A stretch of DNA of 63,198 bases, filler included, from Hausera hauseri (lineage: Eukaryota): NCBI GenBank assembly GCA_046269625.1. It is 12 parts of 12 records of this genome, joined end to end, with 100 filler letters (N's around TTAATTAATTAA, not from the genome) between each part and the next. Parts side by side here need not be neighbours in the genome. Positions count along the whole stretch, not along the records: positions 21,498 to 28,476 come from JBJURY010046887.1; 11 more parts are not named here. The stretch is one strand, 5' to 3'. Shown here one piece after another: positions 5,142 to 37,105 of this stretch; position 1 is the first letter of the stretch, and every line of letters begins with the position of its first letter. The notes under the pieces are model-generated. The model was not told where the DNA came from, ran no database searches, and saw nothing but the letters and a program-made list of their open reading frames with translations. Position numbers and translations under genes: made by a program.

Positions 5142-5874
<733 letters not shown>

Positions 5875-5957: not shown

Positions 5958-6148
5958 CGTACATGTACGATATTTTACCGACCTGTTCGATAAAAGATAG
6001 AGACCCTATTATGTACGATAATTTCCGGAAATCGTACGATAATTTCTTACTTAAGTCTCCGGGAAAAGTGTACGATAATTTTTCCCCAAATACGATAATT
6101 TTCGTCTTCAAATACGATAATTTCGTGTCCGAGGGTTGGCAACGCTGG
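5958..6148. repeat. Cluster of TACGATAAT motifs ending in a TIR-like GAGGGTTGGCAACGCTG; probable DNA-transposon end
   Basis: About 6 copies of TACGATA(A/T)T. The reverse complement CAGCGTTGCCAAC resembles termini of non-autonomous DNA transposons. Confidence 0.45.
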
Positions 6149-7520: not shown

Positions 7521-7712
7521 ACCGCTGGTCTTACGTTACCTAAAAAAACTTCAGTGTATCCACGCGACTCAAGGTACACCATCGGTGGATCATATGCACC
7601 GCTGGTCTTACGTTACCTAAAAAAACTTCAGTGTATCCACGCGACTCAAGGTACACCATCAGTAGATCATATGCACCGCTGGTCTTACGTTACCTAAAAA
7701 AACTTTAGTGTA
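7521..7712. repeat. 77-bp tandem repeat, ~2.5 copies
   Basis: accgctggtcttacgttacctaaaaaaac starts at 7521, 7598 and 7675. Confidence 0.95.
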
Positions 7713-8059
7713 TTAATCCAACTCGAGCTACGCCGTGAATATGCTGACTGTAGCATAAGTATTTGACATGTACCGCTGGTTTTAAAACCAAAATGGGCGT
7801 ATTATTCGAAAATTTCATCCTGAAATTCTCTAAAAAAAATCCCCTAAAACTTACTGACAACAGTAAACACTGAAGACAATTTCAAATCGCAAAAATTAAA
7901 ACGAAAAGTAAAAAAATCAATACAAAAAAACCTTACCTTGGAAGAAATCGACTTACTATCCCCGAAGCGTCCGCCAAAGTGAAATCAAACCTAAACTAAA
8001 AATTCCACTTAACGAAACTGAAACATGACGTCAAATCGAAACTCAGCACATAGCAAAAA

Positions 8060-8217
8060 TCAAAATATCCCTAATATCAAAATCTAAATATCCCTTACAC
8101 ACAAAGCAAAACATGAAAATATCCCTAATATCCAAATCTAAATATCCCAGTATAATATCCTTAATATCGGTAACAACAAACTCAAAATATCCCTAATATC
8201 AAAGCTAAATATCCCTA
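8060..8217. repeat. Degenerate tandem AAATATCCCT(AATATC) repeat
   Basis: About 7 copies of aaatatccc are visible. Confidence 0.7.
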
Positions 8218-9567: not shown

Positions 9568-10050
9568 ATAGTTATTCACGTCTGTGATGAACCGAAAAAA
9601 TTGTAGAAAGATTTCGTTTGTACAAAGAAACTCATTGTGAAAGAAATACGTTGCTTCGCTGAGTATTTGTCAGCGGAAAATGAGTTATATGCAGATGTTG
9701 ACATCAGTCCATTGTGATATCAATATATTTGACTGGCTCATGACGTATGTTAAAAGAGAACAGTTGTCAAAATGCGACAAACTATCAGTTTCATCATTAA
9801 AGCCAAATAATGTTGTTTCGATATTAATATCTTCCGACTTTTTGAAAATGGACACTTTAGTTGATGATTGCATCGAATATATTCATTCGAATATAAATGA
9901 TCTGCTATCGACATCGTGCGACATAAATTGTGTAAATTCTTCGCTTATCGAAAAGAATGCAGAACGATTCACTGATTTAGAAATAAATGCCATTGTCTAG
10001 AAAAAAAATTAAAATAAGAAGTAAATTATTTTGAATCAAAATGGAGCAGC
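9568..10050 (+). pseudogene. SANBR: SANBR/KIAA1841-like BTB-domain (DUF3342) fragment, intronless, with stops and a frameshift
   Basis: IVIHVCDEPKKL*KDFVC..L.VKE...FAEYL / ISVHCDINIFDWLMTYVK / LKPNNVVSILISSDFLKMDTLVDDCIEYIH are hallmark motifs of this family. Confidence 0.85.
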
Positions 10051-10369
10051 TAAAGCCTGATGACAATATTCCTGGTGATTTGTACGTTATTACTGAATAT
10101 CCCCAAGAAGATGGACACTTTATTAAACTTACTGATTGTGGTGCCCACAGCGGCCGGCGCCCTCTGGCCCATTTGGTTGGACACGGCCGGGCGTCCGTTG
10201 TCGCCGCGTCGGGCCCATAAGCGGGTCCCGATCTTCCGCCTCGAAAACTTCTCCATCCAAAAGTTTTATCAGAAAAGCGAACTTTTCCAGAAGACGATAA
10301 AGAACACGTTCTCCAAATACGATCTAATAATAATTCCGTTAAAAAGCCCAGACTGACTTTAGTAAAAAA

Positions 10370-10830
10370 AACAAACATCACAAAGTTCCATGACATCTTT
10401 CTACAAATTTGAAGAAAAACGCAGAAAAGTTATAAAACCAATCATGTAAATATGAGAATAACGCAGCAATTCCAGTTATAACGAGTTGTTCCGCATTTTA
10501 AACAGCAATCCGACAACAAGTGGTATAACGGCCATTAACGACACAACTGATGTTAGATAGTAATAAACATTAATCAATTTATGTTCCAAATAAAATTCCT
10601 CCAAAACAAAAAATCCACAGAGGTATCATCACTAAACCCAACAGTAAATTTGAAAACGTAACTGCAGCACCAATATGGCAATGTCTCTTCATCCGTACAC
10701 TGTACAAGTTACTCACATCGCCACCCGGACAACAACCAATCACAATAAGTGAAAAACAAAACTCCTTGTCCAACGATGATAACAGAGTCAGACCCGTAGG
10801 GAGGAATGGCATAATGAAGTACACTTTCAA
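10370..10830 (-). pseudogene. SLC10 / sodium-bile acid symporter family fragment
   Basis: FIMPFL...LIVIGCCPGGDVSNLYS......AAVTFSNLLLGLVMIPLWIF, then in a shifted frame SVVSLMAVIPLVVGLLFK. GCCPGG..SN is the SBF-family signature. Confidence 0.7.
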
Positions 10831-13800
10831 TGGAGTTAAATAATAAGCTGAACTGTAATCAGTCCATGAGCATGTAGATAATTGAGTATACAAGACAATA
10901 ATAAAGTGGGCAGATGTAAATTTAAATTGATTACTATTGATAATGACCTTTGACTTCATACTTCATTAACATTTTGAATTTTATACGTTTCATTTCATTA
11001 CAAATGTTGTATGATATTTTAATAACACTTGGTCAATTATATTTGGATACATACATGGAATCACATGCCATCATACAAATCAGAACAATATCCTGAAAAA
11101 CATTGACACCTTTTATTCGACTACAAATAGCATCGGATTCAGATCTTCGAGATTCGTTTTTAATTGCTGAAAAGCTTATTAAAGCTATTATAAAAATTTT
11201 GCCGTCTACAACGTTTCAAGAAAAAACCGAATTGACTACAATGTGGAAAAAAATTATTTGCTAAGCTCTGATAATTCAAATGCCAATGATTGATCACATT
11301 CAATTGGTTTTCACTCATTTTATTTCAGATATCGATAATCTTTTTAAGTGTGTGAAACAAAATGCTGTGTTCTGAGTACAAGAAAACAAACTTGACTGTT
11401 TTACACTTTAGATGACTAATATGAAACATGTAAATAAAAAAATTGAAAAAATCAGTTTCGGTTTCAAAAAAAGCCAATCCGACATTTTACAGATCACAAT
11501 CTTGCGAATATCTCGATCACAACCCTATTGATATTTCATCCAGGTCAGAGTTAGTGCAACTTACAGAATTTCTCGACGTTGAAATCTCGCGTGCAATTCA
11601 AATTTATTCTCCGAGGCATTATTAGCATTTTGCAGTCAGGTCTGTTGTTTGTTTATTAAAACGTTCAGTTCTCATTTACATTTTGTAAGATACTCTATTG
11701 AGTCATTTTTGAAGCATTTGATCGTTAATTCCACGTGAGCATTGTGAAGTGAAATATTTTCTTTAATTCTCAGTCGCTTTGTTTTTCTGGTGTTTGAGGA
11801 GTTTTGATGCAAAACAAGAATTTTCATCATTTGTATAGATTTTTGCTGCCAGAACTTTGATTCAAACTAATCCATTATAGAAATTTCGGGAACAGTTGCT
11901 AAATTTGCTCATACAGAACGATCAGTTTACCCTCATCAACATATCAGCTACATATTCTGGTATTTAACAACTTTTTCTGTTCGGCATACATACATTACGA
12001 ATATTACAGCACAGTGACTTTTGTACATCTCATTTGATTGATGTGATTATCCATTTCGTTTTTCTTGTAACATTTTGAAGCGTCTACGTGAATTGCGTTA
12101 ATTCTGAATTAATTCAGTTTCCTGTATCATTCTGAATTGGTAAAATTTTTTTTGAATTCGAATTTTTGTTTACCATATTGACTATTTAATCTTCAATTTT
12201 CGTTCACATAGTTTAGCTAAAGCTTTTGGGCGGTTTTCAAATAATGAAACGAAAGACAAAATCCAAAGAATCAATGTCTGAATATGGGATTTCAGAGTGC
12301 CCAGTCCGTATTGAAGGAATTGTTAAAGATTTTATTCCAACTCATGATAAATATTACTGGGACACGATTTCTAGTCTTGTTTTGTCGCGTTTCGAAATGT
12401 TTTTTGATTCCTTGCATGTTCAGAAACTTGAAAGATTTATTGCAAAGCTAGTGGATAATTTTGGGCTGACATGCCAGGGACTGATCTCACTCATTAAGAA
12501 AGAATTGGTTCCTGAACGAGCTAGGCCTTTGCGACGAGAAATTGATTTATATCTACTAAACGATTGCAGTGAAAAACCTGCTTATTGAGTATTTTCTTAC
12601 AATTGGAAATCATGGTAGCAGTGAGTTTACCATATTTAATAACGAAACATTGACAAAACCCAATATTGCACCTGCTCTTATCACAAATTTACCAATGACG
12701 TTTCATATTAATTCTTCCGATCTCACCAACGCATTTAAGATGATTTTTATCGAATGTATAGAAAATTGTGATTCAGCCATTTTGAAAAATGAGCAGGATA
12801 TACTTGAATACGTTATGGACTCAATATGAGCTAAGATCAGTATTCTGCCTATTCGTGTTCATGAGGAAAATGCTGCTACCGGAAAGCCAAAAGTAACTTG
12901 GGCACGCTGCGGACCCAGTACGCTTTATTCAACAGGGCGACACTGAGACATTTAACAATAATTAATAGGTGGTATATTACTATTACTGGGTGTTAATTCA
13001 ATTTGATAATTAGTTGTTATAACATTAATGAGTATTACCTTTATGGGCATGTCCGAATGATACGAATTTTCCTGACACTATTTATCGAATTCGGATTTAA
13101 CGTCGCACTGTTGATAATTACGTACTTGATCCGCGACGTGACCAGGTGCACGCATTGTTACTTTTGGCATTCTGGTAACGTTATTCGCCTCATAATCACG
13201 AATGAGCTGAATATTGATATTGGCCAATGTATTATCAATGGCATAATCAAGTATATCCTGCTTGTTTTCCAAAATCGTTGAATCGCTATTTTTTATCAAT
13301 TAAATAAGTCTTCTCAAACGTGTTTAGGAAATTCATGATATTTGAGGCCAACGTATTAAATAGATAATTCAATATGAATACATCAGAAACTAGGTCATTA
13401 TACCATCCAAAAAGAAATGCCATTGATATAAATCCATAAGATGATAGTAAAATATCATAACATTGCATCAGTTGACGAAATATAATTTTTTGTTGTTAAT
13501 AGTGTAATTTCTCTATGTAATAAAGATCCCTGAGAATTAACTGGCGTAGTAAAAATAGAGTAGAGTACTTGGACTCAAATATTCCTCATAAATATATTTT
13601 GAACTAAGAAATTCGTCAATATGGGGGAAAGATTTAAGTTAGACATAAAATGTGCTTTATTAAAACAATCAACGATTTTTCTCAAACGCATAAAACACGT
13701 CACAACAAAGGATAAAAAAGGGGCCAGGAAATCCGGCAACATTTCAGCATGTCAAAATACAAATATACCACACGTGCTAAATATTGTGCAGAACATTAAA

Positions 13801-16264
13801 CAAATATTCATAGAGCATGTGTGGACAGAAAGTTATACGACAAAAATAGTTACAAAACGCACCACTGATAAAACTTTATGAACAAATATATCAGCAGCAA
13901 TGAAAGACCACATACTCATTACGATTGATGGATTTTAATTGACATCTTTCACAATAACCGGATGCTTGCCCAAAAATAATCCGTACAAGATACAATAGTA
14001 CGACGCGGGATTGTTTCCATGTTCATAACTTCTATGTAATTCGGAGATCCATTCTTTAATCTGAGACGCCCAACACATTTGCATTTGTTGCTTAATGATC
14101 ATATGTTTGATAACATTCTCTGCATTGGATAATACTACCAACTTTCTTTGGCTCCTTGAAAATCTGAAAGGAAGTCTTGAGGGAAGCGATATCGATAAGG
14201 ATTGATTTTGACTAAACTTTTCGGTTTTTATTTTAACAAAAGGCCAATTTGTTATGTAAGTCATTTTCATCAATTCTCGTACAGACTACAATTAGTGTCT
14301 TGTTGTCTGGTGCTTAGCCATTGATGATTGGCCTTTGATTCGGTAGAATTAAATACAGGTGTTCTGTTTTACATGCAAATTAGGTTTGTCATAAGGTTCA
14401 TATTTCAAATATTCTTTTAAAATGACGTCATACACGAACGAAAGAAACAAACTTGTGTCATGTTGCACGAATCTAAATTCATCATTGTAACAAAACCTTC
14501 AATCATTTCAAGTCCACTATGCAGCCAACGCAAATTGCATGTTTCTCGTGTCAAACGACATGTATAATCAAACGACTGTGCAAATGAACGTGTGGCCCTA
14601 ATTCCTGTTGATACCGATTCAGAGGTAATTTCGGGTAACCAAGACCGTCCCAGCTGAGATAAAGTTTTGAAATATGTAACACGTTCTTGTTTAACGTTGG
14701 ATGGAACGGTCCATCGTTCTCCAACTTCCTCAATTCGGACAAACGTATTTCGACATTGAGGGATGATTGACGGTGGTGGCGCATTAATTTGCTCTAGTTT
14801 AAGTTTGGTAATTTGATCTTTTACTTCGATCAATATTTGGTAGTAAAATTTGAAAATCTGATTCAAAGAACAATACGACTTTATTTCGATTTTACCGATA
14901 AGTTGAAAACTACAGTGACAAGGCAAAAAAACTGTCTAGTGTACGGACAGTTGAATTAACTGTTGTTCGAGAAGTGCTTTGTGAACTTCTAGCGGACACG
15001 TACAAATTAAATGATTCTGTGTCGGTTTTATATGATTTTGCATCTGATGAGCCAAATATTGGCTAATATGAATCTGCGGTGGAATGGGGAATTGTTGAAT
15101 TTTCCATTGATTCAACGAACCGGTATGATTAAATGGCGGATTAATTAAATTATCCACTTTCGTATTCGACATTTGATGGCGATTATTTGACAACTGTGGA
15201 GACATTTTAATATTACTCCTGTCAATGTATTGCTGTTTATTGTTTCCAACACTTCGCACTTCGCTCACAAATTCATCTAAAGTATGATTTGTAAAAATGT
15301 TTTAAATGGAAAAATCCTTCATTTGAGAACATTCTAAAATTGGCCAAATTTCGTACGCAAAAATTAAGAATGCAAAATTGAAAATCATTCAATGAAATTG
15401 GGAACGTCTAAGTAATGTAATGTTTGCTATTGAAATGCTGCTCAGAAAATTGGTTATAATCTCATGCGCATGCAACTCCTTCACGACATAAGTAGTAGTC
15501 AAAAGCAATTATGCAAGTCGAATGATCGTTCATAGGAAAATATTTTCTGGTCCTTTGGATTGTTTGTCTGTCCGGACAATACTTACCTCAGCAAGTATGT
15601 AGTTCTTAATTTCCATACATTAAATGTGTCCCGACATACACACAAACACACCAACACGACTACAAAAGTCGGTGTGTGTGTAAATTTGTGTCTACCAATA
15701 CATACTGGACACAACCAACATCGTATGAATCAATATGCTAGAGTCATAATGATTTTCTTCGTATCTCCACAAATATTTATTTTATCTAACCACTTTTGAT
15801 GTTGGATTCCGTATAATGTTTCAGTAATTTTTTGATTTAAAGTTTCTTAATTTTATGTCATCGTCGTCATACTCACAGACTTATTGTCATTTCTAATAGA
15901 AGCCAAACGTGGAGTTATTTAGATTTCTTAAACAAATCTAATCGTTCAATTTCCATTAAGAAAATGGATCAGTTTGAAAATAAATGATTGGCTTGATGCG
16001 TATATCCAGACGGTACAAGCCACTAACACTCCCACCTCATTTTTATTATATCTTTGTGAGAGGAAACTCCTATGCAATCTAAGCAAAGAGATCTGAATAC
16101 TTTTCCTTTCATAAACGAAATGTTTTAGTTATACGCATCTATTTTACACTAAAAACAAAACTACNNNNNNNNNNNNNNNNNNNNNNNNNNNNNNNNNNNN
16201 NNNNNNNNTTAATTAATTAANNNNNNNNNNNNNNNNNNNNNNNNNNNNNNNNNNNNNNNNNNNN

Positions 16265-16715
16265 CACGCACAAACTTTCTCCATTTTCGTTTATTTGTCC
16301 CAAGTCCATTGCAACCCATTATGTCTTCATATCCCTTATTTTCGTCTCCAATGTTTGCATTCAGATCTCCCATTATGAAGTTTACATATCTCGATAGGCA
16401 TTTTGTGCATACAGATTCCAGCTTGCTGTAAAATTCTTCTTTAGTTGTTTCATCACTTTCATTTGTTGGTGTATAACATTGGATCACGTTCATGTTGATT
16501 TTCTTTCTTCTTTTTGCGAAAGGATGCAATTATAATTCATGGGCCTTATGCTTCCCATCCAATGAGCGCTTTATGTGCTAGTCTCAAAAACATCAGTGCT
16601 ACTCCCTGGGCATGCGATGAAATGTCCTCTTCATGACCTGAATATATGATTTGTTCCCCTGCGCTCTTCTGTCCTGATCCTAGCGCCTTGTTTCACTAAT
16701 TCCTAATATATTCAC
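16265..16715 (-). mobile_element. RTE-clade LINE, AP-endonuclease fragment (degenerate)
   Basis: NILGISETR...IYSGHEE...IQCYTPTNESDETTKEEFYSKLE...IMGDLNANIG. Confidence 0.85.
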
Positions 16716-18554
16716 CAAAATGACCACCACATAAGATTCCAAATGGGTTAAATTCAGAGGCGTACTGACACTTTCGCCAACTGGGGCGAGGTAGCCTTCC
16801 AAATTTACCCAATAACGTTTACATTTGTTAAAAAGCAAACGTTTACAGGAGTTTCAGCTCACTACGGCAAGGATTGTGTTCATTTGGCTGACTGATGTTT
16901 CTTATCAGTAAGATCAGAAAGAGACAAACATCTATGATTGGCCATATTTTAAGCTCTGGAGAACTTGCTCACCACGGGCAAAGTACCAGGAAGTAGAAGC
17001 AATGGACGACACAGAATGAAGTGTTTGGTTGGTTTGAAAGAATGGCTCGGAAGTAGGTCAAGAGCAGAGATGATTGGGACACCAGGAATCGCGAGAAATG
17101 GAGATCCATGACAGCCTACCTTCGAGGATGCTACCCGATGATGATGATGCTATGACCACGAGGTTTTCGTGCAACAAATAAACACGTAGGAAGCACACAA
17201 CTGGAAACACACTGCACTTACCATCTAAAGTAAATCCTTCAGCTGCTAATTCCCGTGTGCTTATCCCACAAATCATGCGATTGTTTCCGAAAGTGGAATG
17301 ACGCCTTTCTTCTGTCATGAAGATTCCTGTAGGTAAAGCGATCCTGTCATCCTCGCAAAATGCTTCTGACAAACTCCTGCCTGGCTTCAGTTTTACAACA
17401 GATTCCAGCTCAGATTTTGATTCTTGATGAGAATGCTCGGAGGTATGTGTGTTCTGGTCCCTGCTAGCAGGTGTACATGGTTCAAGTGACTGTGAACTAG
17501 AGGCTGCCATTCCTGTTTTAAACCTATTTCTATTTTAACAAGATCAGTTTTTCTTGGAATATGTTGCTAGTCAAATGTTACTCCCTGAAATGTTTATTAT
17601 TGTACAGCTCTTCATATTATTAGTAAGATGTCAGAGCTGGTGTGTTTTTTTTTAATTAGTTAGATTATGTTTGAGGAAATATCTACGAAATCCCCAAGAC
17701 AACAGTTTTAGAGCTATTGGATTTACACTATATGTCACACGCCTATTCTTGTGTTGGATTGAAACAGTCTGTACCTGCTATGCTCTCTTATTTATGCACT
17801 TAATCGTATTACATTTTTTAGCCCACTCAGTCCCAGTGTTAGTATTCAATGTTTCACGTGACCTGAATGTTTGCCTCTTGTGCCCTGCTCTCTCTTTTGA
17901 GTGTGGTTAAAAGGGTCCTGCAGTATAAATTCTGAAACTCAAGTGGCTGTCAGCATTTACAAACCGATCAGCTTTATGAAACTGGGTGTAACAAACTATC
18001 GACATACATTGTAAAAACTGGAAAATTTACAAATTTGTAAAAAGTGCTAATTAAAAAAAAATGTTCACATTGACTTTACGTATGACAGTCTTTCTACTAT
18101 CTTGAAAACTACTAGAGTGTTCGACGAGGTAGTTAGCAATCAATCCATATCACACGGTGCGCTCGGTTTGTTAATTGTTCAATGTCTCATTCTTACATTA
18201 TCTGCTGGAAGTCTCATTGACTTGGAAAGACTGATGGTTACCCGATGGTCAAAATGGAACCGCACTGGCTTGTGAATTCGGGAATGAACGTTTTAAATTG
18301 TTTATCTTACACGCTCTTAAATCTCTATCTCATCTGTACTCTGTGCTTGGTTACAACTTTTCTTGTCTTCTGTTATGTCTTTTCTACACCTTTTCTAAAC
18401 TTGTTTAAATATTATTGTAGATTTTTTAATCTTATAAAATTAATGATCAGCTGTATATAGTTGAAGAAATACAAACAACAACAACAAAATAAAAACTCCA
18501 GCAGAAAACGTAAATAACAAAATGAAACATATATTCGATAACTTTACTGAAATG

Positions 18555-19974
18555 CAGTGGCGAAGCATGGAATGTTTCAAAGTGTTAGCGTATTACATTA
18601 TTTGTCCAATGTTAACCCATAGATTAAGAACAGTTTTTACCAGAGGATCTTGAAGAAAAAATTCCAATGCTTTCACCAGGATTTGAAATTATTTAACTAT
18701 ATAACTTGAATTAAGAAATAGTTTACCCCTGTCCTCTTGTGGTTTAAACTTCTTAAAGGAAATGAGTGACTAAATAACTTCTATGACTCAGTCCCACCTT
18801 TCCCCATAATAATTTTTAAATACCTAAGCAACAGTAAGTACACATCCGTTCGTCTAAACTCCGACCTGTCAACGGTCGGCGAACTGCTAACAATGTATAC
18901 ACTTCGGCAGTTAATTTTAAGAATAAACATTTTACGGGAATGACTGATAATCACAACAATACCCTAGCGCCCTCCCCTTCAGTGTTAGCAGACAAGAAGT
19001 GTGATTTCGTAGGCTAGCAGTAGGGCTGAAAACAAAGCTTTTTTTTCCTTTTGAAATTGAATGCTGCTTGCCGTAAAATTCTCATCGTTTACAAGAGTTT
19101 TTAAATTTAATTTTTTACATTTAACATTATATATTACGCTCATCTTTTTTCCTTTTTGTAAGCATTGCTAACGCTGTGAACACGGGGGCCTCGCTACCGC
19201 TGAAATGTTCAGCATAAATCCACTTAAATAGACTTAAACGAAGAGAGGCATATACAAAGTGACAGAGAAAGACAGACTGACAGAGAGATGTTTGAATTGT
19301 TAAACGCGTCAACTTTATTTCTACACTTACTTGCGCCTCCATGTTCACAAATTTAGCAATGCTGACAAAAAGTAAAAATAGGAAAATAATATATAATGTC
19401 AAACATAAAAAACTAAATTAAAACAATCTTGTAAACGACGAGAATTTTACGGCCAGTAGCTCTCCACTGAAAAAGGAAAAAAAAAAGCATTGCTGTTAGC
19501 CCGTGTCAGCACTTCTCCCTCGCCCCTTTCTATCAACGTTAGCATGTTAACTTGGATGCGGTGGTGTGCTGTGGGTATTATTGTGATTATCGCTCATTCC
19601 CGTGACGTGTTTCCTTTATAAAAGTAGCTGCCCGCAGTTAACTCAATGTTAGCGAGCTTAGGAAATGCTTACAGGTCAAAGTTCAGTTCAATGCTTGCTG
19701 CGTTTAAAAATTATCACGAGGGAAAGGTGTGACTGCATTATAGGAGTTACTTGGTCCCTCATTTCTTTCAAGAAGTTTAGACCAGAAGAGGACATAGGTA
19801 AACTATTTCTTAATTTAAGTAATATAATAAAATATTTTCAAATCCTGGTGAAAGTACTGGAAATTTTTTTTCTTCTCGATACTCCAGTAAAATCTGTCCT
19901 TTGATCTATGAGTGTGACATTGGACAAACAATGTAATGTGCTAACACTTTGAAAAACTCCACGCTCCGCCACTG
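18555..19974. mobile_element. ~1.4-kb non-autonomous foldback DNA transposon with CAGTGGCG termini (hAT-like)
   Basis: The left arm from 18555 aligns to the reverse complement of the right arm ending at 19974 over most of the element. Examples are ctttcaccaggatttgaaa, aattaagaaatagtttacc and gccgtaaaattctc.tcgtttacaaga. The 8-nt flanks match only 5/8. Confidence 0.85.
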
Positions 19975-20364
19975 CTTACTTGCAATACATGTTGTCATCA
20001 AACAGTGCATGGATCTTGCATATGTGTGTACATTAATAACATGTGGCCAAACAAAAATCAGAAAACATCTGTTTCACATATCATATCACACACTACCATT
20101 TCTGTTAATTTCTTCTAATTTCATTCTAACCTCTAAATTACACTGGGCTAATGATTTATTTTTCAGAAGAGTACTTACAATCACATCCCATAACTGTTTA
20201 TATTCATTTGTCCTGGTTTAAGCATACGGTTCTTTAAATAAAACGGAATTGTTTTAAGGAAAGGAAAGAATCACTAATGACAGTTTTTTTTTAAATGTGT
20301 CGTAATACACAGTGCTTGGAGAGAATTCCGGGGTGCTATATTATCCCTCTGCCATCTGTGCTTA

Positions 20365-21497: not shown

Positions 21498-22344
21498 ATC
21501 TCGAACCATCAGAAGATATCTAGCACTGATGAATTTGAAGAGTCATATGGCTGTAAGAAAGCCATTTGTAAATGCATGGCAATTACTCAGGCATATTAAT
21601 TGTGCAATAGCTTATCTCCAAAAGCAAATGTGCTTTTGAAAAATACTTTGTTTATAGATGGGTGTTCCATTCCACTTTTCAGTTGTGGAAACGAGTATAC
21701 AGAGGCCCTAATGAGACTTTCTTACCACAGCATTTCCGATCCACGGTAAGTCATGACGGATCTGTTATGGTATTGGGATCGTTTTTCTACAAAGGTGTAG
21801 GACAAATGAGGATTCTTGAGCCCGGATGCAGAATGAATTCTGCTTGGTATTGTTCAATCCTACAAAAGGAGGTGTCTAACACCTTGGAGGAACATTCAGG
21901 TGGGTCTGCCAGGGCTAATTTTCAAGATGACGGGGCACTCGGCCATTGATCCCTGTTGGTGAGGAGAAAGTGCCGACAGCTTGGAATTTCGCAAATACTT
22001 TGGCCAGGGCAAAGCTCCGATTGTAATCCGATTGAGAATATGTGGTCATTCCTCAAAACCAAGGTGCAAGCGCATTGTTCACGAATTTTGAATGAACTGA
22101 ACTCAGCGATTCTATGTGTGCGGTCTCACAAGATTCCACTATGATATTGCTAGGGCCTTGTAAATTCCATGCCTTCTCGATTGAAACTCGTCGTCCAGCG
22201 ACAAGGCTTCCCAATAAAGTATTAGGCATTTGTACCATTCTTTATTCATTACTTAAAGATTTGCTTGTTTGGTGGCTTAAATTTTCTGAAATTACAGAAA
22301 ACTTGCATTTTGGCTTGATGTTCTTAATTTAATGTCCGGCACTG
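21498..22344 (+). mobile_element. Tc1-like transposon, 3' part with degenerate DDE transposase and right TIR
   Basis: SRTIRRYL..RKPF / TVSHDGSVMVLG.F..KGVG / FQDDGALGH / WPGQSSDCNPIENMWSFLK. The element ends ...AATGTCCGGCACTG followed by TA (22345-22346). Confidence 0.9.
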
Positions 22345-22346
22345 TA

Positions 22347-22420
22347 AATTTCGATGATTGATCCCGCATCAATTAGTGCACAGACTTCCCAGACGTCAAT
22401 ATAAATTTTAGTGAAGGCCT
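22347..22420 (-). pseudogene. Retropepsin-like aspartic protease N-terminus, truncated by the Tc1 insertion
   Basis: GRP[frameshift]FTKIYIDVWEVCALIDAGSIIEI. The DAG codons GAT GCG GGA (22362-22370) are one transition from DTG. Confidence 0.6.
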
Positions 22421-22789
22421 TCCTTCTATTATTGTACCTCGCATTTCATTCATTTTCCATCATACACCATAGTGTTTTGTTACTTCATAAGGGTCCTCAA
22501 AATTAGATGGTTTTCTACAGATTTCTGTTTGATACGATCGCTTATCACAGTCTTCGAATACTGATGCGGTAGAAAGTAAGATTGGCAACAGAGGTTTTAT
22601 GATGGAATATGCTTTATGTCTATTTATTCTGAAGACGGCGTTTCCTCCCTTAGGCTCGTCATTATCTGAAATATTTCTTCGCGTCATTGATTTCTCAACC
22701 TTGCGTTTCAGTCGAAATATGAGTCTTGCTCGAAGTTTATAATTATAGTAGCCGACATGGCGTTCAACGTCATTTTTCCATCGATTTTC

Positions 22790-24581
22790 TTCGTATGCTT
22801 TAAGTATTTTACCAAACGGTATGATAATTGCTGTTAAAATGTTACAGGAAAATTCTGTTAGCGTGAATATTTCGTACCCATTTATAACCGCTTTAATTAC
22901 CAGATGTAGCTTGTTCAAAAATTAAAAATCTTCCCCATATTTTGTAGAGTATTTCTGTGGTTACCCGTTGGTAATGGTTCTCACCAAGCAAGGATTCCTA
23001 TTTAGCCTAATATCGGGTATCGTCTACTACTGATGCCAAGACTCGGTTTAATTGGTGTGTTTGCTGTCGTGCAAAAGCAAGAAATTGTCGAAAAGCTTTG
23101 ACCTCTTTTGGTCGATAAATGTTTTTTGAAACGTATCTTGGAACTTGTCGTCAGTAATGCCTTTTGCTAAATTAGTTCCAGTTAGTTTTTTTAGGAATAA
23201 TAGTGACACTTCCATTGGGTAAGCTAACCCAATCCGTTTCGCTACGCCTAAACATCGGTTCACCCAAACTTGCTTTGTAATCCTTTAATATTGTAGGTTG
23301 TGTTGCGTTGTCTAGCAATACTATAGTGAGAGGCATGGCTAATCGTGGAGTGTTTTGGTGGATTACAGGTAACTCTTGTATACATCGCTTTTCTTCAACC
23401 TTAATTGGTACATCGCTTTTCTCGCATTCATAAGTTAGTAGAACTTCACCAGTAACTCGACCAAAAATTCCTTCTCTCATGGGAATGATCGGTGATGCTA
23501 ACTCCGAATTCTCATAAATAAGAGCTAATTTTGTTCTCATAATTTCCGTATCCAGCTTGCAGTCATTAGTTATCATTTTGTGGTATAGTTCGACTATTCC
23601 GACTTGTCCTTTATAATAAAAATAATCGTTTCGGTTTTTCAGATAGTCTTCGATTCGAATGTTTTGCGTTTCTAGGTTGTATGTTTTTGCGTTTATCTCC
23701 GTTTCTGCGACGAAAAACGCTTCGTAATTAGTGGTGAACATTACTACTTCACATCTTGAAATCATTTCCTTTCTGATGAATTTCAATCAATGTTGGTCAG
23801 GGACTAATATCGTAGGTGTATAATGCTCTGATACGTCTTCACGTGCTCTTGAACTGATGTCGGATTTATCTACGTATGGTTTCTCGGTAGTTTCCTTAAA
23901 TTTCAATTCTTTGATCTTAATAAATTTACAGGCTTTCCCGGTAGGCGGTTCCCATATGACGACAGAACTTCTGAAGGCAGAAGTTCCGTCTTGCATGTGA
24001 CATTTTTGATTCTCAGTATATAACTTAGTGATGCTATGGAACATTACTTTTTGGACTCGAATCTTGGATTCGTAAAAGTCTACTACTACTACATTTACTT
24101 CCAATCCTTTTCCGGTATCGTATTCCGTTCCAATACAGTGCCCGTTATTCATATTTAGCCTTCCGGCTACAATCTTATACGCTCTGATTATTTTTCCGGG
24201 CTGCATTTCTAATTCCATGCTATCGCATTTCAGTCTTCCGGTTTCTCGGGCTTGCTTACAATGTTGTCTTTCCACATATATTGGAATTGAAAGGGTTGTT
24301 GGTTTGATTAATGAGAAATGTCCGTGCATCAGTCCACAATGGAAGATGCTACAAGATCTTCTCAGCATACATCCCATGCCATCCAAAGATATCAACTCTT
24401 GTTGTTGGTATAGAAAATAGGTCTTCTCTTTTGTTTCCAGTTTATGTGGTCTGGCATCTTCACATGCTTCTAAGTCCATTAATGAATACTTTTGTCCAAG
24501 TTTGAATCTATCACAATCGTAAACGGTAACAGCACCCATTTGTTTTATTAACATCATTATGGTGAGCAAACTGATTAACCA
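22790..24581 (-). pseudogene. Chuvirus/Jingchuvirales-type fusion glycoprotein (env-like), ~600 aa, decayed
   Basis: Signal-like WLISLLTIMMLIKQMGA|VTVYDC..YSLMDLEAC, then C.L.RS.SIFHCG..H.S, C..A...G, GHCIG, VIW......C, C....TTNY, Y.....C.L, GEVLLTYEC...V......CIQELPV......P.T, PMF.....W and KIWGRF.IF...SG / INGYEIF....FS..ILTAI. This matches the cysteine and motif pattern of chuviral glycoproteins. Confidence 0.8.
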
Positions 24582-25299
24582 ATTAGATTAGTTCTTCAGG
24601 TTGTTGTTATTTGTTGTCGTCAAGTTGCGTATGACGTTTTCGAGTCTATTGTTATTTCTCTTGTCTTCTTCCTTGTCAAACAATTTTGGCCAATTTACTT
24701 CACACGGGAGTTTTCTAGACTTTTTACGTGCCAAACTCGTAGCTCGATTTAGTTCATTTTCTCGATTAGGATTTGTCTTAATTGCCAAATACAATAATAC
24801 TTTTCTCAGCTCTTCTATCGCATTATACACCATGATCTTCTAGACTATTGCGTCTTCAGTTAGGCTACTTTTTGACAGTCTGAAACGCGAACTTCTCACT
24901 GTTCTAGCTGAGTTAAATATTGCCTTTTCTTTCTCGTCTAATGTACCTCCGCGGAGACTCGAATAATTTACGATACGTATTAAATTTTTTCACTAACTCG
25001 CTTAATTCTTTATTATCTGTACTGAGAATAGGAATCGACACTTATCTTAATTCTCTAATTAGTTTTCCGTTATAGTCAATTTCTTCTCGGGTCTACGTGG
25101 GTCTGCCTACTGGGCGTTTCGGTTTCGGAGCATTCGTTGGCATTCAACTTAATGGTACTAAATTCTTGTCATATTGCTCTTTGTCTTCATCCGTTTGTAA
25201 ATACTCGAAATACATTGCAGGGTCTCGTACTCCCCAGATTTGTCCTACTCATTGTTCCGTTTTAGCCTTCCGTGTGGCTTCTTCTTTCGTCTGTTTATT

Positions 25300-25525
25300 G
25301 GCTATTATTGCTATTATCCGATTTGTTTTGTCGGGAATAATTCCGACATCTATTAACTGTTCTAAATCGTCGAGTATTCTTCCGCTAAAGTAAAATCTGT
25401 AATTTAGCTCATTTGTTCCGCCATTATTTAGTAACCATTCTCTTACATCCTTTACGTAGGACTGAGTAGTTAACTCATTCTTTTTTTTCCATCCAGTCGG
25501 ATGATATCATTACTTTTATCACTAC
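25300..25525 (-). other. Ubiquitin-like domain within the retroelement polyprotein (copy 1)
   Basis: VIKVMISSDWMEK[fs]NELTTQSYVKDVREWLLNNGGTNELNYRFYFSGRILDDLEQLIDVGIIPDKTNRIIAII, compared with ubiquitin [21 protein letters not shown]. Confidence 0.65.
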
Positions 25526-28126
25526 ATCAGGTTTAGTTCTCAGAATATTCGCATACTTCTTTATCAGGACTTTTGCAACCGTGTTGTAAATTGCATTCTC
25601 ACTAGATAATTTAGTTAAGGTCTGAGCTTGTTTTCAGTCATTCACATTAATTGATTCCATCATGTCCTTCTCGGCCAATGCTAAGTCTAGGATCATCTAT
25701 ACATTGAATTTCCTGTTCTGCGGATACCTTTATATTTCTTCTAGGTTTACTGGAGTTCCCGAATTTTCGGCCGTTATTTCTTCTAAATAAGCATCCCATT
25801 CTGGTTTATTCGCAATATCTGGAAGTCCATAGTCTACTAGAGCTGTATTCGTCCTTTGGACATTTTCTCGAATTTCTCTAAATTTTGGTTGTATTTCTTT
25901 CATCTGCGTAGTTCGGAATCCTATTCCGCTTCCACAGGCATATTGAATCATTTTCAATAATTCGCCTAACTCGTTAGCATTGATAAATCTCTTTTGGTGA
26001 TAGTCGGTTAATTCCATAATTACATCTCTTTGCCATCTCTGCACAAATTATTGTTTATTTTTAATTTCTGATTCCGTAAAAGTGTATTTGTTCCGGTAGC
26101 TTTCGAATTCTTTTACTAGTTCATCTAGCCTTGTTGCTCTTTGTTTCGTTTTAATGCATGATTCTTCAACTTGTTGTAGTTTGGGAATTAATTGCCTCAT
26201 TCTTTTATCTAAGATTTCGATGTCTTGGGCAGAGATCTTATCGATTGGTTTTTCCGTTAAGTATTGGATTCCTTCTAGTCCAGCAACCTTCAACTTTGAG
26301 TTTACATCGTAAATCATGTTCCGCTTTTCCATGAAGTTCGGCTCTTCGATCAATTTATAAATCTCCAATATCGACGTTTCTTGTTTTCTTTTCATAAATT
26401 TTAGCCGTCTTAACGCTTCGAATTGGGTGCGGATATCTATTTCTATTTTCATTGTGCCTAGATCATGTGCATTTTCTTCTAGCTGATTCTTTACCATTGG
26501 TTCGCTTTGCGGAAATTCTTTTTTGCGGTCTTCTACTAACTTGCTTAGTCTGTTTACTAACTCGGACCATTCTGGCAATTGATTTCCGATAACTGGTTTC
26601 GCCATTATAGCCTTATCTAACATCTTATACGCGTTTTTTAACTCATCGTCGGGCCCTCTTAGGAAATTCATAATCCGACCGACATAACTAAACTCATCCT
26701 TATATTCGTCCAGTTCTACAATACAAGCTTTTATTACGTATTGAGTTTCCTCATGGTTTGGGAACATAATTCGGTTTCTTAAACTATTAATCTGTGATCT
26801 TTATCATTCTGCATTTTGATGCGGCTCTCTAAGTCCGCACATCAACTGTTTTCGACAAAGGCAAATTTTATCATCTCCATTAAGGGAGGAATATCTATCA
26901 GGTCTACACCCAATATCTCAAAATCGATACAACTTCGATCGCTAACCGTTTTTCCCTAAGCCGATTAATCATTGCACAGCGAATTTCATCCATCATACGT
27001 TCTAAATTACGGACTACTCTCTTCAGTTTTGGGTTTGTTTCCAAGGTAGACAGTAGTGTTTGAGCCTTAGCAACTTTCACATCAATACTATCTTCATTTT
27101 TACTCCATCCTTCTGAAAATTCTACACCACTTTTAATCCACTAGTCTAATTCGTGGTTCCATTTTGTCAACGTATCTTGTGGTACCTCTTTCGGTTGTCT
27201 TACTTCAATTGCTTCATCGAGTTTCCCTTCACTCCACAATCTTAAACTCTTGTATAATTTCTCCGCAAATTGTTGTTCCTTGCCAGATATATCTGTTTGT
27301 TTACTAATCTGCTTGAGCCTTTTCAAATTGTGTCTGAGTATTTCTGGATTGTGACATTTACTTCTCATCCTCTTTAATTCTTTAGCATTTTTTCATGAAC
27401 GTCGAACTTTCCATTTTCTCGCATCATGGTCATTATTATTGCCCGTTTCTTCTTCACTAGCGGGAAGCGGACAAATTTCGTTTATTTCCTCATTAACATT
27501 TTCCATCTCTGGAGTTTCTAACACTTCTGGAATCCCTATAGGCGCAATAGAAATCCCTGAGGGCGAGTCATCTCTTAGGATAGCAGTATGGAAATCTTTT
27601 TTTCTTCTGTATCCCTTTTAATGGGAGATTGTGAACGAGTCTTAGATTTTCACTTAGGCGATGGGCTTCTACCTCTATTCTTCGTTATATTGAGAACTAA
27701 GGGCCCAATAAATTTACTTTTGACTTCGTCTATTTTTTCATCTGGATTATGCGTCGCGGCTTCTATTTCCGTATTTAAATTTACATTTTTAGATGTCGAT
27801 GGTTTCTCCGATTGTGATATTCCTTGCGAAATAGACTTCTTACGCTCCATATTAGTATTATTTGGCGCCAATGCCCATTCTTCTTCGGTCTGTGGTTCTT
27901 TTAATCTATGATAAATTTCCATTAGTCGTAATTTCTTTTCATATTATTTTCTAGCGTTCATGACTTGAGAATTAGTAGTTTCCCTTAGATTTCTTACAGA
28001 TATGTGTAAATTTTGCATTTCGATAATCAGGCTTATATCTCCTCGTTTGCCATAGATGGCTTCCAAGTTATTCTTGATCATACTTGTTTTGTTTGGTTCA
28101 GTAAATGTGACACTTCTAGGATTTGG

Positions 28127-28168
28127 GCATGACCTAGCAATATGACCTTCTTTTTCACATGTAAAGCA
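28127..28168 (-). other. Gag CCHC zinc knuckle (copy 1)
   Basis: CFTCEKEGHIARSC, preceded by an R/N/D-rich nucleocapsid-like region. Confidence 0.95.
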
Positions 28169-28576
28169 AATTAAATTTTCATTTCGACTAATCCTTTTCT
28201 GACATCTTTATTCACGGGTGATTTTGACCTATTTGTGTTCTTATTCTGACTCTGGGATATTTGTCTGCTATCTCCATCATATCGATTTTCGTTACTTCGA
28301 TTCTCAGTGTGTTTAGCATTAGGTCGGTAAACACTTTGGTTTTTATCTCAACTGTAACTCGGTTTATTATACGAGTTGTATATGTTTCAATTACTAAAAT
28401 TTCTATCATTTCTTTGATTTCTATTTTGGGCATTTCTATTATCTTTTCTATTTCGATTATTGCGGTCATTATTCCTNNNNNNNNNNNNNNNNNNNNNNNN
28501 NNNNNNNNNNNNNNNNNNNNTTAATTAATTAANNNNNNNNNNNNNNNNNNNNNNNNNNNNNNNNNNNNNNNNNNNN

Positions 28577-28817
28577 ACAAAATCAATATTTCGAATTAAG
28601 CAAAATGTGCATTTAAAGCCCAGTGAAGCGGAAATCAATAAATCTAATAGCGGCACTGGATAGGAAGTTATGTACGTTAAATTGCAATATGGCATCAGGT
28701 ATTCGAATTCGAGCTCACAAGTCGAATACTTAGCTATTCGAACTCAAAAACTCGGTCAAACATGCATTATTGGAAGAATCTAATGATTTCATTCGATTCC
28801 TTGTGGTCGAAAACCTT
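28577..28817. repeat. Dispersed repeat shared with 4589-4828
   Basis: Collinear similarity to 4589-4828. Confidence 0.9.
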
Positions 28818-29394
28818 AAATTTGGCGCCGCCTTCAATTTAATTTAATTTATGTATTAAAACAAAGGCGATTTAAAACTAATCAATAAGCGAGGCAGTAT
28901 ATGGTGATATGGCAATGTTTTTCATAATTTCCAAAATAACTTCAACGATTGGTAAGTTTTTATTTGTGCTGCTCAAATAGTTGGTTGATTTTAGATGTGC
29001 AAACTTTACAGCAAATGTTTGGCTAAATCCACGAGCCGGAAAATTTCCACAGTGTTATGAAGTACTTTGGCCATATGTACAACAGGGTTCAGTATTATAT
29101 ATGCCCTACATGTGTGGCAGTGTGCCAAACCGATTATGAAGACTTTTACAATGTCCATAAACAGTACTTGATTTCCTTCACTAAGTCGAAAAAACAAATA
29201 TTCAGTACCAATATGCCAATAACGAATTTCGTGCCATAGGAAAATCAAAGATACAGTTCATATGTGTATTGCACATGTGCAATACACAACCCTCAGAATT
29301 GCCACAATGCTATGAGGAGCTATGATGAATACAAATTCAATAGAGCCCTTATTATATTTGCCCAAGATGTGAGGCTGTATATGATGGAGAATAC

Positions 29395-32300
29395 ATGCAG
29401 TTTTACAAAGATCATATTGCCCATTTGGCAGAATTCAATTCAAAGCCAAAGAAGGCAATATTTAATAAGCAGCATCTTGCTGTGACAGCACAGCTAGTTG
29501 TACAGCCTGCTTTAGCAGCAAGGCCTGATGCAAGACCAAAACGCCTATCAGAAGTAGCAGCAGATGCTCAATCAAAAAGTCAAAGACAGCGGCCAGTTGA
29601 TGCAGTTGCACTGAAGAGCAAAGTTCGGCGATACTTTGTATCAGCAATGGGGCAGACATCGCTTTATGAATTCCTGCAATATTCAAAGGAGGTGGCAGCA
29701 GGAATTCTCCAGGACAACTTGTTGGAGCTGAAAGCCCTTAAGGTGAACTTTAAATTGGAAGCCACCTTCACCAATGTTAAAGGAGAGCTGTCTAATAAAA
29801 CATTCAAGACAAAGAACAGGACACTATTGAAATCCTTTAATATTAAGGATTTAATTACTGAGGACTATGCAAGGCTCATTCGCAAAGCCGAAGAAGGCCA
29901 GGACAAGAAGAGTGATGGGACTTTAGCAATAATAAATGGGTTACTTGTGCATGTGCAAAAGTATTCTCCCATGAGAGACAGGGTACTACATACCGCTTCC
30001 TGAATGGATAGTTAAGAAAAAGGCATGTATCCGTGTCCATAATAATGACAACATGTGTTTCATGTATGCCATTTTATCAAAACTAGTCCAGGATTAAAAT
30101 AATGCTTCGCGAGTTTGGATATATGACAAAGTGCAGCACACATACGACTTCAGCTGTATTTCATTCCTGCCGAATCTAGATGAAGTCGTGAAATTTGAAA
30201 GCGTGAACATCTCAATCAATATCTTACGATTGGAGGAGGAAATATTTTGTCCATTACATGTGTGCAAGGAGGAATTGGAGGATCATAGGAATCTACTCCT
30301 GCTAGATGATGGAGAAACGAGGCATTTCATCTGTATCAAGAATTTTGAGCTCCTCGTAGGATCCCAAATATTCAAGCATAAATCAAGGCTGGAAATATGC
30401 AAGAGATGCTTTTCCCATTTTAATGGGGACACAGCCGCAGAAAGGCTGGTGGAGCACAAGACTTACTCTAATACAAACCACTGCATCCGAGCAAAATTCC
30501 CCAAAAAGGATTACCTGGAATTCAAGGAGTTCGAGAAGATGCAGAAGGTGCCGATTGTCGTCTATTGTGATTTTGAGACCATTCTCAGCCAAGTTCACAG
30601 CTGCATCCCTAATCCTCAACATAGCAGCACAACAGCATACCAATATCATGAACTCTCATCATATTGTATGTATGCCAAAGGACTGGACAATGAACCATTT
30701 CTATTCAGAGGGTCCGACGCAGCAGCACATTTTATGAAGAGATTAGACGACATGGCTCATAGGCTTGAAAACATTCTTCAGCAGCATAAGGATACAATGA
30801 GCATGTCGAAGAAACAAGATGAATGGTGTAAGGCAACAAGTTAATTGTGCGACAAGTCCTTCACGAAGGATAATTATAAAGTCAGGGATCATTGCATTTT
30901 ACAGGCAAATATCGAGGTGCAGCATGCAACAACTGCAATCTACGTTGCAAAACATACACATATGTGCCTATAGTGTTCCACAATTTCAGCGGTTATGATT
31001 CCCACTTCATTGTTCGGGAACTGGGTAATATTGAGGGGAACATTAATGTCATTGCAAACAGTGAAGAAAATATATCACCTTCACTAAGCATGTGGGCCGC
31101 ATTAAACTTTGATTCATAGACAGCTTCCGCTTCATGAGCTCGTCACTGGATAGTTTAATGAAGAACCTCCCTGCAGAAGAACTCAAGGAGACGAAGTGGT
31201 TCTTCCCCACTGCATCTGACCTCGTCAAGAAAGGCGTGTTCCCCTATGACTATGTAACGTCATGGAAAGAACTGGATGAAGATGCATTACCGGCCGAGGA
31301 GGATTTCTATAGTCAGTTGTCATCCAGTCCTATTAGCGATGCTGACTATAAGCATGACCAAAGAGTATGGCAAACCTTCCAGCGCAGGACAAGAGGAGAA
31401 TACAGTGATATCTATCTCTTCACAGATGTGCTGCTACTTACAGATGTCTTCTAAAGCTTCCGGGATGTGACCCTTAAGACCCACAAGTTAGATCCAGCCC
31501 ATTTCTTTACAACTCCAGGAATGAGCTGGGCGGCGATACTGCACTATACGGGCATAAGGCTCCAGATATTGAAGGATTACAATATGGTCCTCATGGTTGA
31601 GAGAGGCATCAGGGGCGGAATCAGCCAGGCCATTCACAGCTACAGTGAGGCCAATAACAAATACATGGCAGATTATGATCCATCAAAGGAATCCTCATAT
31701 ATGTCATATCTGGATGCCAACAACTTGTATGGATGCGCAATGAGCAACCCATTGCCCTATGATAACTTCAAATGGGTCAAGAATCATGAAGACATCCCAA
31801 TATTGAACCTAGATTCCATTGGAGATACGGGCTATATACTGGAGGTGGACGTGGAATACCCACATAGCATCCACGCAAGGCATGAGCAGCTGCCATTTCT
31901 GCCGGAAAGCAGGCCTCTGCCCCATGGAAAGCATAAGAAGCTGCTCTATTACCTCGAAAACAGGGAGAGGTATGTAGTCCACTACATAAATCTCCAACAG
32001 GCCATCCAAAATGGACTCCGAGTCATCAGGATTCATCGGGCCCTGCGGTTCAGCCAGTCCACATGGCTGAATCCATACACAGACCTCAATACCCAGTTGA
32101 GGGCCAATGCCAAGAACGAGTTTGAAAAGGACCAATTCAAGCTGTATAATAACTCAGTATTTGAAAAACTATGCAGAACATCCGGAACCAGATAAACATC
32201 CAGCTGGTATGTGACTGGAAGAGAACAAAGAAACTCATCGCTAAGCCCAATTGCCACAGCTGCACAATCTACACAGAGAACTTGGTGAACATCCATATGA

Positions 32301-32885
32301 ACATCCATCACTTAAGTTCAACAAGCCTATATATGTGGGCATATCCAAGAGCTTGATGTATGACTTTCATTACAACATCATGGTCCCCACATTTAAGGAG
32401 CTCCAGCTAATGTACATGGACACGGATAATTTCATATACCAGATCCATACAGATGATGTCTTTGAAAAGTTTCAAAAATTGGCGCAGCATATTGATACCA
32501 CGGACTATCCCAAGGATCATCCAAATTACTCAATCGTCAACAAGAAGGTTCTCGGAAAGTTTAAAGACAAGGTGAATGGGAAGATCATCACCCGTTTCGT
32601 TGCTTTGAATTCAAAAATGTACGCCATCGATTTAAGTGGTCAGGTAAAGAAGCGGGTTAAGGGAGTTCAAAGGGCCACATTAACTTAATACATAGGTTTG
32701 TGGATTTTGAGAGATTGTTGCGGGAACAAACTCACATCGTCAGCGAGATGAAGAGGATCCAGTTCCGAGAACATCAGATTGCCACGATTGCACTTCGGAA
32801 GAAAAGCCCCGATTGGTTCGATGACAAAAGGCACATTCTTGAAGACAAAATCCACATACTACCTCACGGACATATGGCATTGTAA
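29395..32885 (+). pseudogene. Polinton/Maverick (adintovirus-like) protein-primed family B DNA polymerase, decayed
   Basis: Motifs include NNDNMCFMYAILS, exonuclease VYCDFET and FHNFSGYDSHF, endonuclease-VII-like RDH.HFTGKYRGAACNNCNL, KGVFPYDY, GIRGGIS, YLDANNLYGCAM, KLYNNSVF.K, YMDTD, KKVLGKFKD, KGV and DDKR..L....TLPHGH-like. There are multiple stops and frameshifts, and AATAAA at 32915. Confidence 0.92.
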
Positions 32886-36260: not shown

Positions 36261-36400
36261 ACGACTACTCTTAGATAGTAAACGAAGAAACCGTTAAGAT
36301 AACGACCAGAAGAGGGACACCATACAAGTTAGGTTCGGACGACAATTTACCATTCGGGTTAGAATTTTTAAACAACTTAAGCGAAGAGGAAGAGAACGGA

Positions 36401-37105
36401 ATGGCAAGAAACGAACACAACGTAGAGCAGGTGATACAGTCAAAAGCTGACTTCACCTTGCCCATGAAGAAGTTTTCAGGAAAAGAAGACGTACAGGATT
36501 TTATCATGGAATACGAGGTATATTCAAAAAGTTTTGGATGGAATGACCAACAACGAATGGAGAGGTTACCTCTCCATTTAAAGGGAACTGCATTAACGAT
36601 TTACTTCCAGATGCCAGAAGAGGATAAAAAGGATTGGAAGACTGTCAAAGAAAAGTTACCTCAAAAATTTCTGGTAGATCCTTCTGGTAAAGGAAGGATA
36701 GAAGAATTTATACGAAGGAGGCAACGAAAAGATGAGACAGTACAGGATTTTGTCTGTGCATTGGAAAAGTTAGCCGCAAGGGCTTATCCGGATGCAGTAA
36801 TAAGAAGTAACGCGTTGTTGGCCCAATTCCAATATGGATTAGAAGCAAGGTTAAGAAGTATTATACTACAAGCTGATCCCTCCACGTTTCAAGAGGCAAT
36901 CAGGAAAGCCCGAAAAGCTGAGCGGGACGCGGAATTATATAAATGGACCAAGTCGAAAGAAAATACAAATAATTATAAACGAAAAAACAATAATAGTACT
37001 CAAAGATATCAGAGATACGATAGAAACCGAAGCCCTTCGCAAACGTCAGCTACAGAGGCTGAGTCAGATGTGGAGAAGAAGGTAAGGTTTAAGTTAAAGA
37101 ACCAT
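36401..37105 (+). CDS. Ty3/Gypsy gag (capsid) ORF, open to the contig end
   Basis: FSGKEDVQDF..YE......GW......LPLHLKGTA...F / RRQRKDETVQDF...L..LA..AYP / QF..GL...P.TF.EA...A..E. Confidence 0.9.

Follow-up and report, generated by a model that had tools for sequence, protein, structure and literature searches.

A broken chuvirus-type env downstream of Gag and cargo in a decayed, likely Ty3/gypsy-type retroelement of the Hausera hauseri assembly

Introduction

The question raised by this locus is in what kind of element a chuvirus-like fusion glycoprotein lies, and whether its signal peptide was an internal part of a longer protein. The window, i.e., the whole stretch of 63,198 nucleotides analyzed, is made of short contigs joined by artificial N-spacers, on account of which the reading of neighbouring contigs as genomic context was rejected. 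The true context of the Env finding is positions 21498-28476 only (JBJURY010046887.1, Hausera hauseri, GCA_046269625.1). On that contig, as observed directly, an Env of defined family and fold lies after a Gag zinc knuckle, is preceded by an internal hydrophobic segment and bears stops, frame changes and a deletion in its anchor. It is highly probable (about 0.82) that the locus is a broken gB/chuvirus-type env placed after Gag and cargo in what remains of a retroelement, likely Burro-like and of the Ty3/gypsy group, the intact ancestor of which would have encoded a single Gag-cargo-Env-Pol polyprotein. An assembly artefact was rejected because the layout is common to two divergent subfamilies and to many relatives. 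The features are collected in Table 1.

Table 1. Features of the two env-bearing elements, with positions along the window
Feature	Positions	Strand	Evidence
Gag C-terminal part: low-complexity N/R/D-rich stretch and CCHC zinc knuckle (28127-28168); contig starts at 28476	28127..28476	-	zf-CCHC E 2.2e-05, translation
Unannotated cargo, ~800 codons, charged, partly coiled-coil-like, with stops and frame changes, common to the second copy	25625..28126	-	tblastx
Short helical segment, then weak ubiquitin-like domain	25300..25621	-	Pfam ubiquitin E 0.034, below cut-off
AT-hook-like basic motif	25093..25122	-	motif 25099-25116; counterpart in copy 2, 59806-59823
Probable degenerate Bcl-2-like helical domain, ~140 residues, split by a frame change near 24989	24666..25083	-	Pfam matches of relatives
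Internal signal-peptide-like hydrophobic segment	24531..24584 (about)	-	peak 11-residue hydropathy 2.8
Class III (gB/chuvirus-type) fusion glycoprotein ectodomain, pseudogenised	22899..24530	-	PF24664, model, Foldseek
Rest of membrane-proximal region and cytoplasmic tail, after the transmembrane-helix deletion	22460..22900	-	frame change, hydrophobic core missing compared with relatives
Aspartic-protease-like motif, weak, where relatives have their first protease	22332..22412	-	local profile of relatives' proteases
Tc1/mariner-type DDE transposase remnant	21602..22099	+	DDE_3 E 2.7e-06
Element of a second, divergent subfamily (different contig), with the likely end of the Gag capsid, a zinc knuckle, cargo, UBL, AT-hook, Bcl-2-like domain, signal, first ~40 Env residues	59121..63198	-	

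Results

The fusion glycoprotein and its decay

Two open minus-strand pieces of Env matched the family PF24664 (Monjiviricetes_fusion) above its curated cut-off, with E values of 8.6e-17 and 3.4e-17. When the stretch 22899-24581 was read with X at the stops, the match had E 1.6e-40 (139 bits versus a cut-off of 27) and covered profile positions 8-553 of 653. The motifs that had been called chuviral in a first, sequence-only reading were all located: YDC at 24513-24521, FHCG at 24333-24344, C..ELPV at 23364-23384, W.RF..F at 22917-22937 and NGY at 22865-22882. The model of Env, folded with 60 relatives, reached a pLDDT of 86.5 and displays a long central helix (310-357), as in a gB-like fold. 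In the Foldseek comparison, which that reading had proposed, the best viral match of the model was the glycoprotein of Tacheng Tick Virus 4 (E 8.1e-32, TM 0.60, 18% identity); the glycoprotein of Wenling crustacean virus 14 gave E 4.5e-29, and the best solved structure was herpesvirus gB (E 8.6e-12). The Env sequence profile run against the PDB yielded gB chains in 36 out of 36 matches, all of them weak (best E 0.003). By profile and by model, Env is thus a chuvirus-like class III fusion glycoprotein, which bears out the family assignment made beforehand.

Concerning the state of this copy, stops occur in the ectodomain, seven being counted over 22899-24980, and a local pair of frame changes is probable near 23120-23190. 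A cut at 22899/22900 interrupts the transmembrane helix; the frame changes at this point, and the hydrophobic core seen in relatives is missing. The motif that precedes the helix could be located in nine out of 13 relatives, and in all nine it is followed by a full hydrophobic helix. A partial deletion of this helix near 22900, already noticed by eye, is hereby confirmed. With no open frame and no intact anchor, this Env copy is a pseudogene and does not qualify as a functional class III fusogen.

Organization of the element upstream of Env

In the order of the element, the zinc knuckle of Gag is followed by cargo of about 1,200 residues, the internal signal, Env and a weak protease-like motif. 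The cargo probably includes a weak ubiquitin-like domain, an AT-hook and a probable Bcl-2-like domain. The second copy is about 67% identical to the first one in DNA and 34-73% identical in protein blocks. This DNA identity, between elements placed on different concatenated contigs, argues that they are separate subfamilies and not recent copies. The zinc knuckle is present in both (E 1.8e-07 in copy 2), 3.3-3.6 kb before the signal. Copy 2 likely shows also the end of a gypsy-type capsid, as it gave a C-terminal match (iE 0.15) to a capsid profile built from five relatives. With segment ends taken approximately, roughly 24 stops plus several frame changes were counted in copy 1, and 11 stops in copy 2. 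Neither copy is open from Gag to Env, the continuity of both parts being likely from the two copies considered together with the relatives.

The unannotated part of the cargo displays 36-61% amino-acid identity between copies (tblastx blocks), and Pfam gave no family at E<=0.1 for 25481-26929 and none at E<=1 for 26905-27578. The ubiquitin-like region has an equally weak counterpart, at the same place, in the relative P0015 (E 0.031, also below the cut-off), while the AT-hook was matched by Pfam AT_hook with E 0.2 in copy 2.

The helical domain that precedes the signal was considered separately. Pfam Bcl-2 was matched by the four aligned relatives (best E 2.1e-05) and by neither of the two window copies. 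Four relatives have a BH2-like motif 30-60 residues before the signal, the GGW of which is absent from the window copies. Residues 50-192 of P0007 align with copy 2 over the Bcl-2-like domain and the signal (E 2.8e-07), and a six-row profile of the domain compared with Bcl-xL gave E 0.06-0.5. The structural model was poor (pLDDT 50) because the alignment had only six rows; a search run with this alignment recovered only three of its own members among 7,991 candidates, and the alignment stayed at six rows. Members of the Bcl-2 family took ranks 1 and 2 in Foldseek, but with E>1. A wide VIA search of the model returned generic helical proteins first; three viral Bcl-2 chains (Z 5.0-5.1, rmsd 5-7, not significant) were among the few matches aligned over most of the model. 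No usable match was obtained in the ESM Atlas for 59374-60060. The domain is probably Bcl-2-like and degenerate, unproven as it stands in these copies.

Organization downstream of Env

The protease-like motif gave a local iE of 0.0047, which was equalled by one out of 300 shuffles, and a whole-window iE of 1.8; it had no Pfam match. Past about 22250, nothing else of the element could be recognised. Neither of the two element-bearing contigs contains a reverse transcriptase, an integrase or an LTR, both ending before such parts and before a primer site or target duplication. In the sequencing run X1, which may come from the source sample, 9,264 short contigs fell on the window, with a summed depth, which is no copy number, of 498-18,989 over 22432-28470 versus 14-41 over 21500-22431. 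This step hints at a multi-copy family whose close similarity stops before the protease-like motif. No related loci were found in the metagenome or viral contigs searched.

Position of the signal

The signal-like segment, formerly placed at 24531-24581, was recovered at practically the same position, and its counterpart in copy 2 (59233-59286) has a peak 11-residue hydropathy of 2.4. According to the sequence-only reading, this segment shares its frame with the UBL/AT-hook region in each of the two copies. This holds for copy 2, where one frame, with four stops, runs from 60333 to the contig end (59122) and takes in the ubiquitin-like region, the signal and the first part of Env. It does not hold for copy 1, where the AT-hook and the signal are in different frames (the change is near 24989) and a stop occurs just before the signal. 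Both copies lack an ATG in frame with the signal over the roughly 130 nt that precede it, and neither matched a simple polypyrimidine-AG acceptor pattern.

Thirteen long relatives, which are predicted ORFs from metagenome contigs, and two of which share one 90% cluster, were inspected for the same feature. In every one the hydrophobic segment lies inside the ORF, 124-1,340 residues in. This argues that, at the level of the family, the Env signal is internal and not separately initiated, so that the former claim in this sense stands as far as the family is concerned.

Relatives and tree

Relatives of Env were obtained from a HMMER search, and the rows of the tree were picked by hand from 150 listed matches. 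Among the listed matches, 17 relatives had E<=1e-30, with 12 of them longer than 1,000 aa. The identity of the window Env was 24-31% to polyprotein-borne Env and 14-20% to named viral G. A word-based homologue search with the glycoprotein at near lengths gave none among 2,237 candidates, the relatives being longer. In the 14 relatives scanned for domains, a protease follows Env in ten, and RT/RNase H, integrase and a Pfam Gag marker before Env were found in five, four and three, respectively; none of the 14 had a BEL/Pao marker. Several relatives are single long ORFs that run Env-PR-RT-RH-IN.

The tree was computed with FastTree from 71 Env rows (61 from alignment A2 and 10 long relatives); it is unrooted and was drawn with midpoint, and P0015, the Env part of which was too short, was excluded. 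The window Env grouped (SH 100) within a clade that comprises 16 rows drawn from the top 17 matches, apart from the row P0053, which bears DUF5641, a domain that we take to be BEL-associated. Its branch is long (1.54), with a best identity of 29%. In this tree, Env nests in a deep retroelement clade.

The Ty3/Gypsy-like rather than BEL/Pao context initially proposed agrees with these data, i.e., with the lack of BEL/Pao markers in the 14 relatives and with the separation from P0053. For Env, a gypsy context is likely; the membership rests on the relatives, as neither contig carries the parts of pol or the LTR. On the other hand, a distinct capture from a negative-strand RNA virus is not shown by this unrooted tree, in which the Env clade is deep, and neither are its donor, direction and date.

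Some relatives display further features. After the integrase, two hydrophobic segments 240-400 residues apart occur in the four long relatives checked (P0003, P0004, P0012 and P0153), which is consistent with a further membrane protein, with a second signal and anchor, made likewise. Repeated aspartic-protease domains occur in P0153, P0008, P0003 and P0007, with up to seven stretches in P0153, which has also ankyrin and C2H2 domains. The region about 110-290 of P0012, before the Env signal, has by eye the look of a DEDD exonuclease, for which Pfam gave no match at E<=0.1. P0004, although a retroelement polyprotein, carries the label of a hypothetical protein from a Flavobacteriaceae MAG, and is probably animal DNA binned into a bacterial assembly.

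Discussion

Proposed mechanism and alternatives

In an intact element, one RNA would give one chain, the Gag and cargo parts (ubiquitin-like, AT-hook, Bcl-2-like) being translated in the cytosol. The internal signal would then direct the chain to the ER and be cut by signal peptidase, with the ectodomain entering the lumen. The transmembrane helix would stop the transfer and leave protease, RT, RNase H and integrase on the cytosolic side. Enveloped particles could then move between cells by class III fusion. The polyproteins of alphaviruses and flaviviruses, with a capsid followed by an internal signal and glycoproteins, resemble this mechanism. The copy at 21498-28476 can no longer make such particles.

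A doubtful extension of this mechanism is that the Env signal, after its cleavage, remains attached to the Bcl-2-like module, the end of which lies 30-60 residues upstream, and serves as its C-terminal membrane anchor, mimicking a tail-anchored Bcl-2 protein, so that an apoptosis modulator would be made 1:1 with the fusogen. Here the GGW of BH2 is lost, the module lies behind about 800 residues of undescribed cargo, and the host is possibly outside planarians. Other relatives have an internal signal without a BH2-like motif, which counts against a Bcl-2 origin of the signal. This double use of signal and anchor was not found in the literature searched, including the available part of PMC6431247. 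If true, a signal that anchors a Bcl-2-like protein would tie particle entry to the control of host cell death in a transposon.

The weakness of the protease-like motif and the absence of pol before the Tc1 remnant would be expected also if the family were here mostly a non-autonomous Gag-cargo-Env derivative, with pol lost and borrowed in trans and with the motif as chance or remnant. This seems improbable, as the motif sits where relatives have their first protease and locally beats 299 of 300 shuffles, most of the scanned relatives (10/14) continue into protease, and the Tc1 remnant together with the contig end is enough to explain the absent pol. A different objection concerns the signal: as happens in Drosophila gypsy, Env could come from a subgenomic message, either spliced or initiated separately, in which case its in-frame position would be incidental. 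The stop and the frame change upstream of the signal in copy 1 would fit with it, and so would the in-frame Met codons inside the hydrophobic segment; but a start at these inner codons would lose most of the segment, which is not preceded by an in-frame ATG or, by the simple pattern, by an acceptor-like site. Besides, no stop separates the upstream domains from the signal in any of the 13 long relatives, and a single frame is kept in copy 2 even though the DNA has diverged by about 33%. A separate message as the source of Env is therefore very unlikely, although it could coexist with the polyprotein route.

It is hardly credible that a chuvirus glycoprotein was inserted recently and separately, as an EVE, into a gypsy element, as the heading of the sequence-only reading implies, even if the best viral folds are chuvirus glycoproteins and the available text of PMC10084718 reports gypsy fragments beside Jingchuvirales glycoprotein EVEs. 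The identity to named viral G is well below that to polyprotein-borne Env, the window Env nests in the deep retroelement clade, and a scan of 25 window ORFs turned up neither a viral N nor a viral L family.

Comparison with known systems

The reading as a Gag-cargo-Env-Pol element has close precedents. In the available text of PMC6431247, where the work of Grohme 2018 and Jurka 2007 is cited, planarian (dugesiid) Burro/GYPSM1 is a giant Ty3/gypsy element in which Gag-CCHC is followed by coiled coil, Ubi/SUMO-like, BCL2, in-frame Env and PR; its env matches mononegavirus fusion glycoproteins, and decayed fragments with stops and frameshifts occur in Dugesia japonica. Compared to Burro as described in that text, the present element coincides in the Gag CCHC knuckle and in a region that is partly coiled-coil-like, and may coincide also in the Ubi/SUMO-like domain (weak here), the BCL2-like domain (probable here) and the in-frame env placed before the protease (here, a weak protease-like motif). 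It differs by having one knuckle versus two or three, by the degenerate BH2-like motif, and by the MATH domain, which was not found here. The pol, BIR, ankyrin, dUTPase and LTRs given there for Burro are not on the present contigs.

According to the part of PMC13524379 available, gB-type errantiviruses with the order GAG-ENV-POL occur in Nematoda, Bryozoa and Platyhelminthes, and chuvirus-like gB-type Env lies beside gypsy pol in 114 arthropod elements; an ancient acquisition is argued there. The Schmidtea 'Platyhelminthes_C1a' elements Smed_errantivirus_1-6 of that source have, as here, a gB-type class III ENV, which in them lies before pol, but they are intact while the present one is decayed. 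In its supplement 2, the Schmidtea ENV domain I-II rows share the cysteine and motif pattern of the window Env, in a comparison made by eye only; by eye too, the bryozoan, nematode and Daphnia ENV rows lack the pattern. The words Bcl, ubiquitin and polyprotein do not occur in the main text of PMC13524379, in the version available.

As a discovery, such an Env is not supported: the available parts of PMC13524379 contain both the order GAG-ENV-POL and chuvirus-like glycoproteins next to gypsy pol, and those of PMC6431247 the in-frame env of Burro. The layout of the element being already published, the present locus is a divergent, dead addition to the published group. The sequence-only reading was right in the family of the glycoprotein; it missed that Env occupies the central place of a Gag-cargo-Env-Pol layout and that the signal is preceded by a probable Bcl-2-like domain. 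With a best identity of 29%, the locus extends the little-studied retrovirus-like elements with a class III fusogen inside one Gag-Env-Pol chain, and the cassette of ubiquitin-like domain, Bcl-2-like domain, signal and Env appears to be kept across distant subfamilies. Its importance would be greater if the host is not a flatworm.

Two other known systems were considered. The Anakin elements, which in the available text of PMC7642597 are mosquito BEL/Pao elements with a chuvirus glycoprotein, have in common with the present one a retroelement-borne PF24664 glycoprotein, but on a BEL/Pao backbone, whereas Env comes here after Gag and cargo. From the domain scan and the clade separate from P0053, the locus is not a member of this BEL/Pao group. 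The Jingchuvirales glycoproteins belong to the same Pfam family and are the best structural matches, but are only 18% identical to the window Env. The Jingchuvirales glycoprotein is a stand-alone viral gene with an N-terminal signal, not a part of a retroelement polyprotein. Judging from its embedding after Gag and cargo in two subfamilies, with polyproteins as nearest relatives, the window Env is not a solo chuvirus EVE.

Other features of the window

Other contigs contain further coding and repeated sequences. A Ty3-type capsid ORF occurs at 36275-37105 (+; E 5.3e-08), 44% identical to the Gag of P0015 and with an iE of 3e-50 to the capsid profile of the relatives; it probably marks the beginning of a third element that belongs to the same broad group and is truncated where the contig stops. 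A decayed gypsy-type pol on its own contig (55037-58358, +) has RT and RNase H matches, an integrase by tblastn, and is 30-39% like the pol of the relatives; there was no evidence of a link to the Env element. The stretch 29344-32688 (+) contains the remains of a type B DNA polymerase in decay (DNA_pol_B_2 E 3.6e-11), presumably Polinton/Maverick-like. An open frame of 894 codons at 38554-41238 (-) encodes a DEAH helicase without introns and with a divergent N-terminus (three homologues, best 48%), which we take to resemble DHX16/Prp2; it may represent a retrocopy or belong to another organism sequenced along with the host. HYDIN coding sequence was found at 2302-2877 (+), with E 1.4e-29 in the comparison with a solved HYDIN chain, and a short intron seems to be read through in frame; this exon points to a host with motile cilia, if the contig is from the same organism. 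Repeats were seen at 4589-4828 and 28577-28816 (dispersed, 240 nt, 85%), 18554-19975, 12747-13307 and 7516-7746, a set that comprises also two long inverted-repeat structures and one 77-nt tandem repeat.
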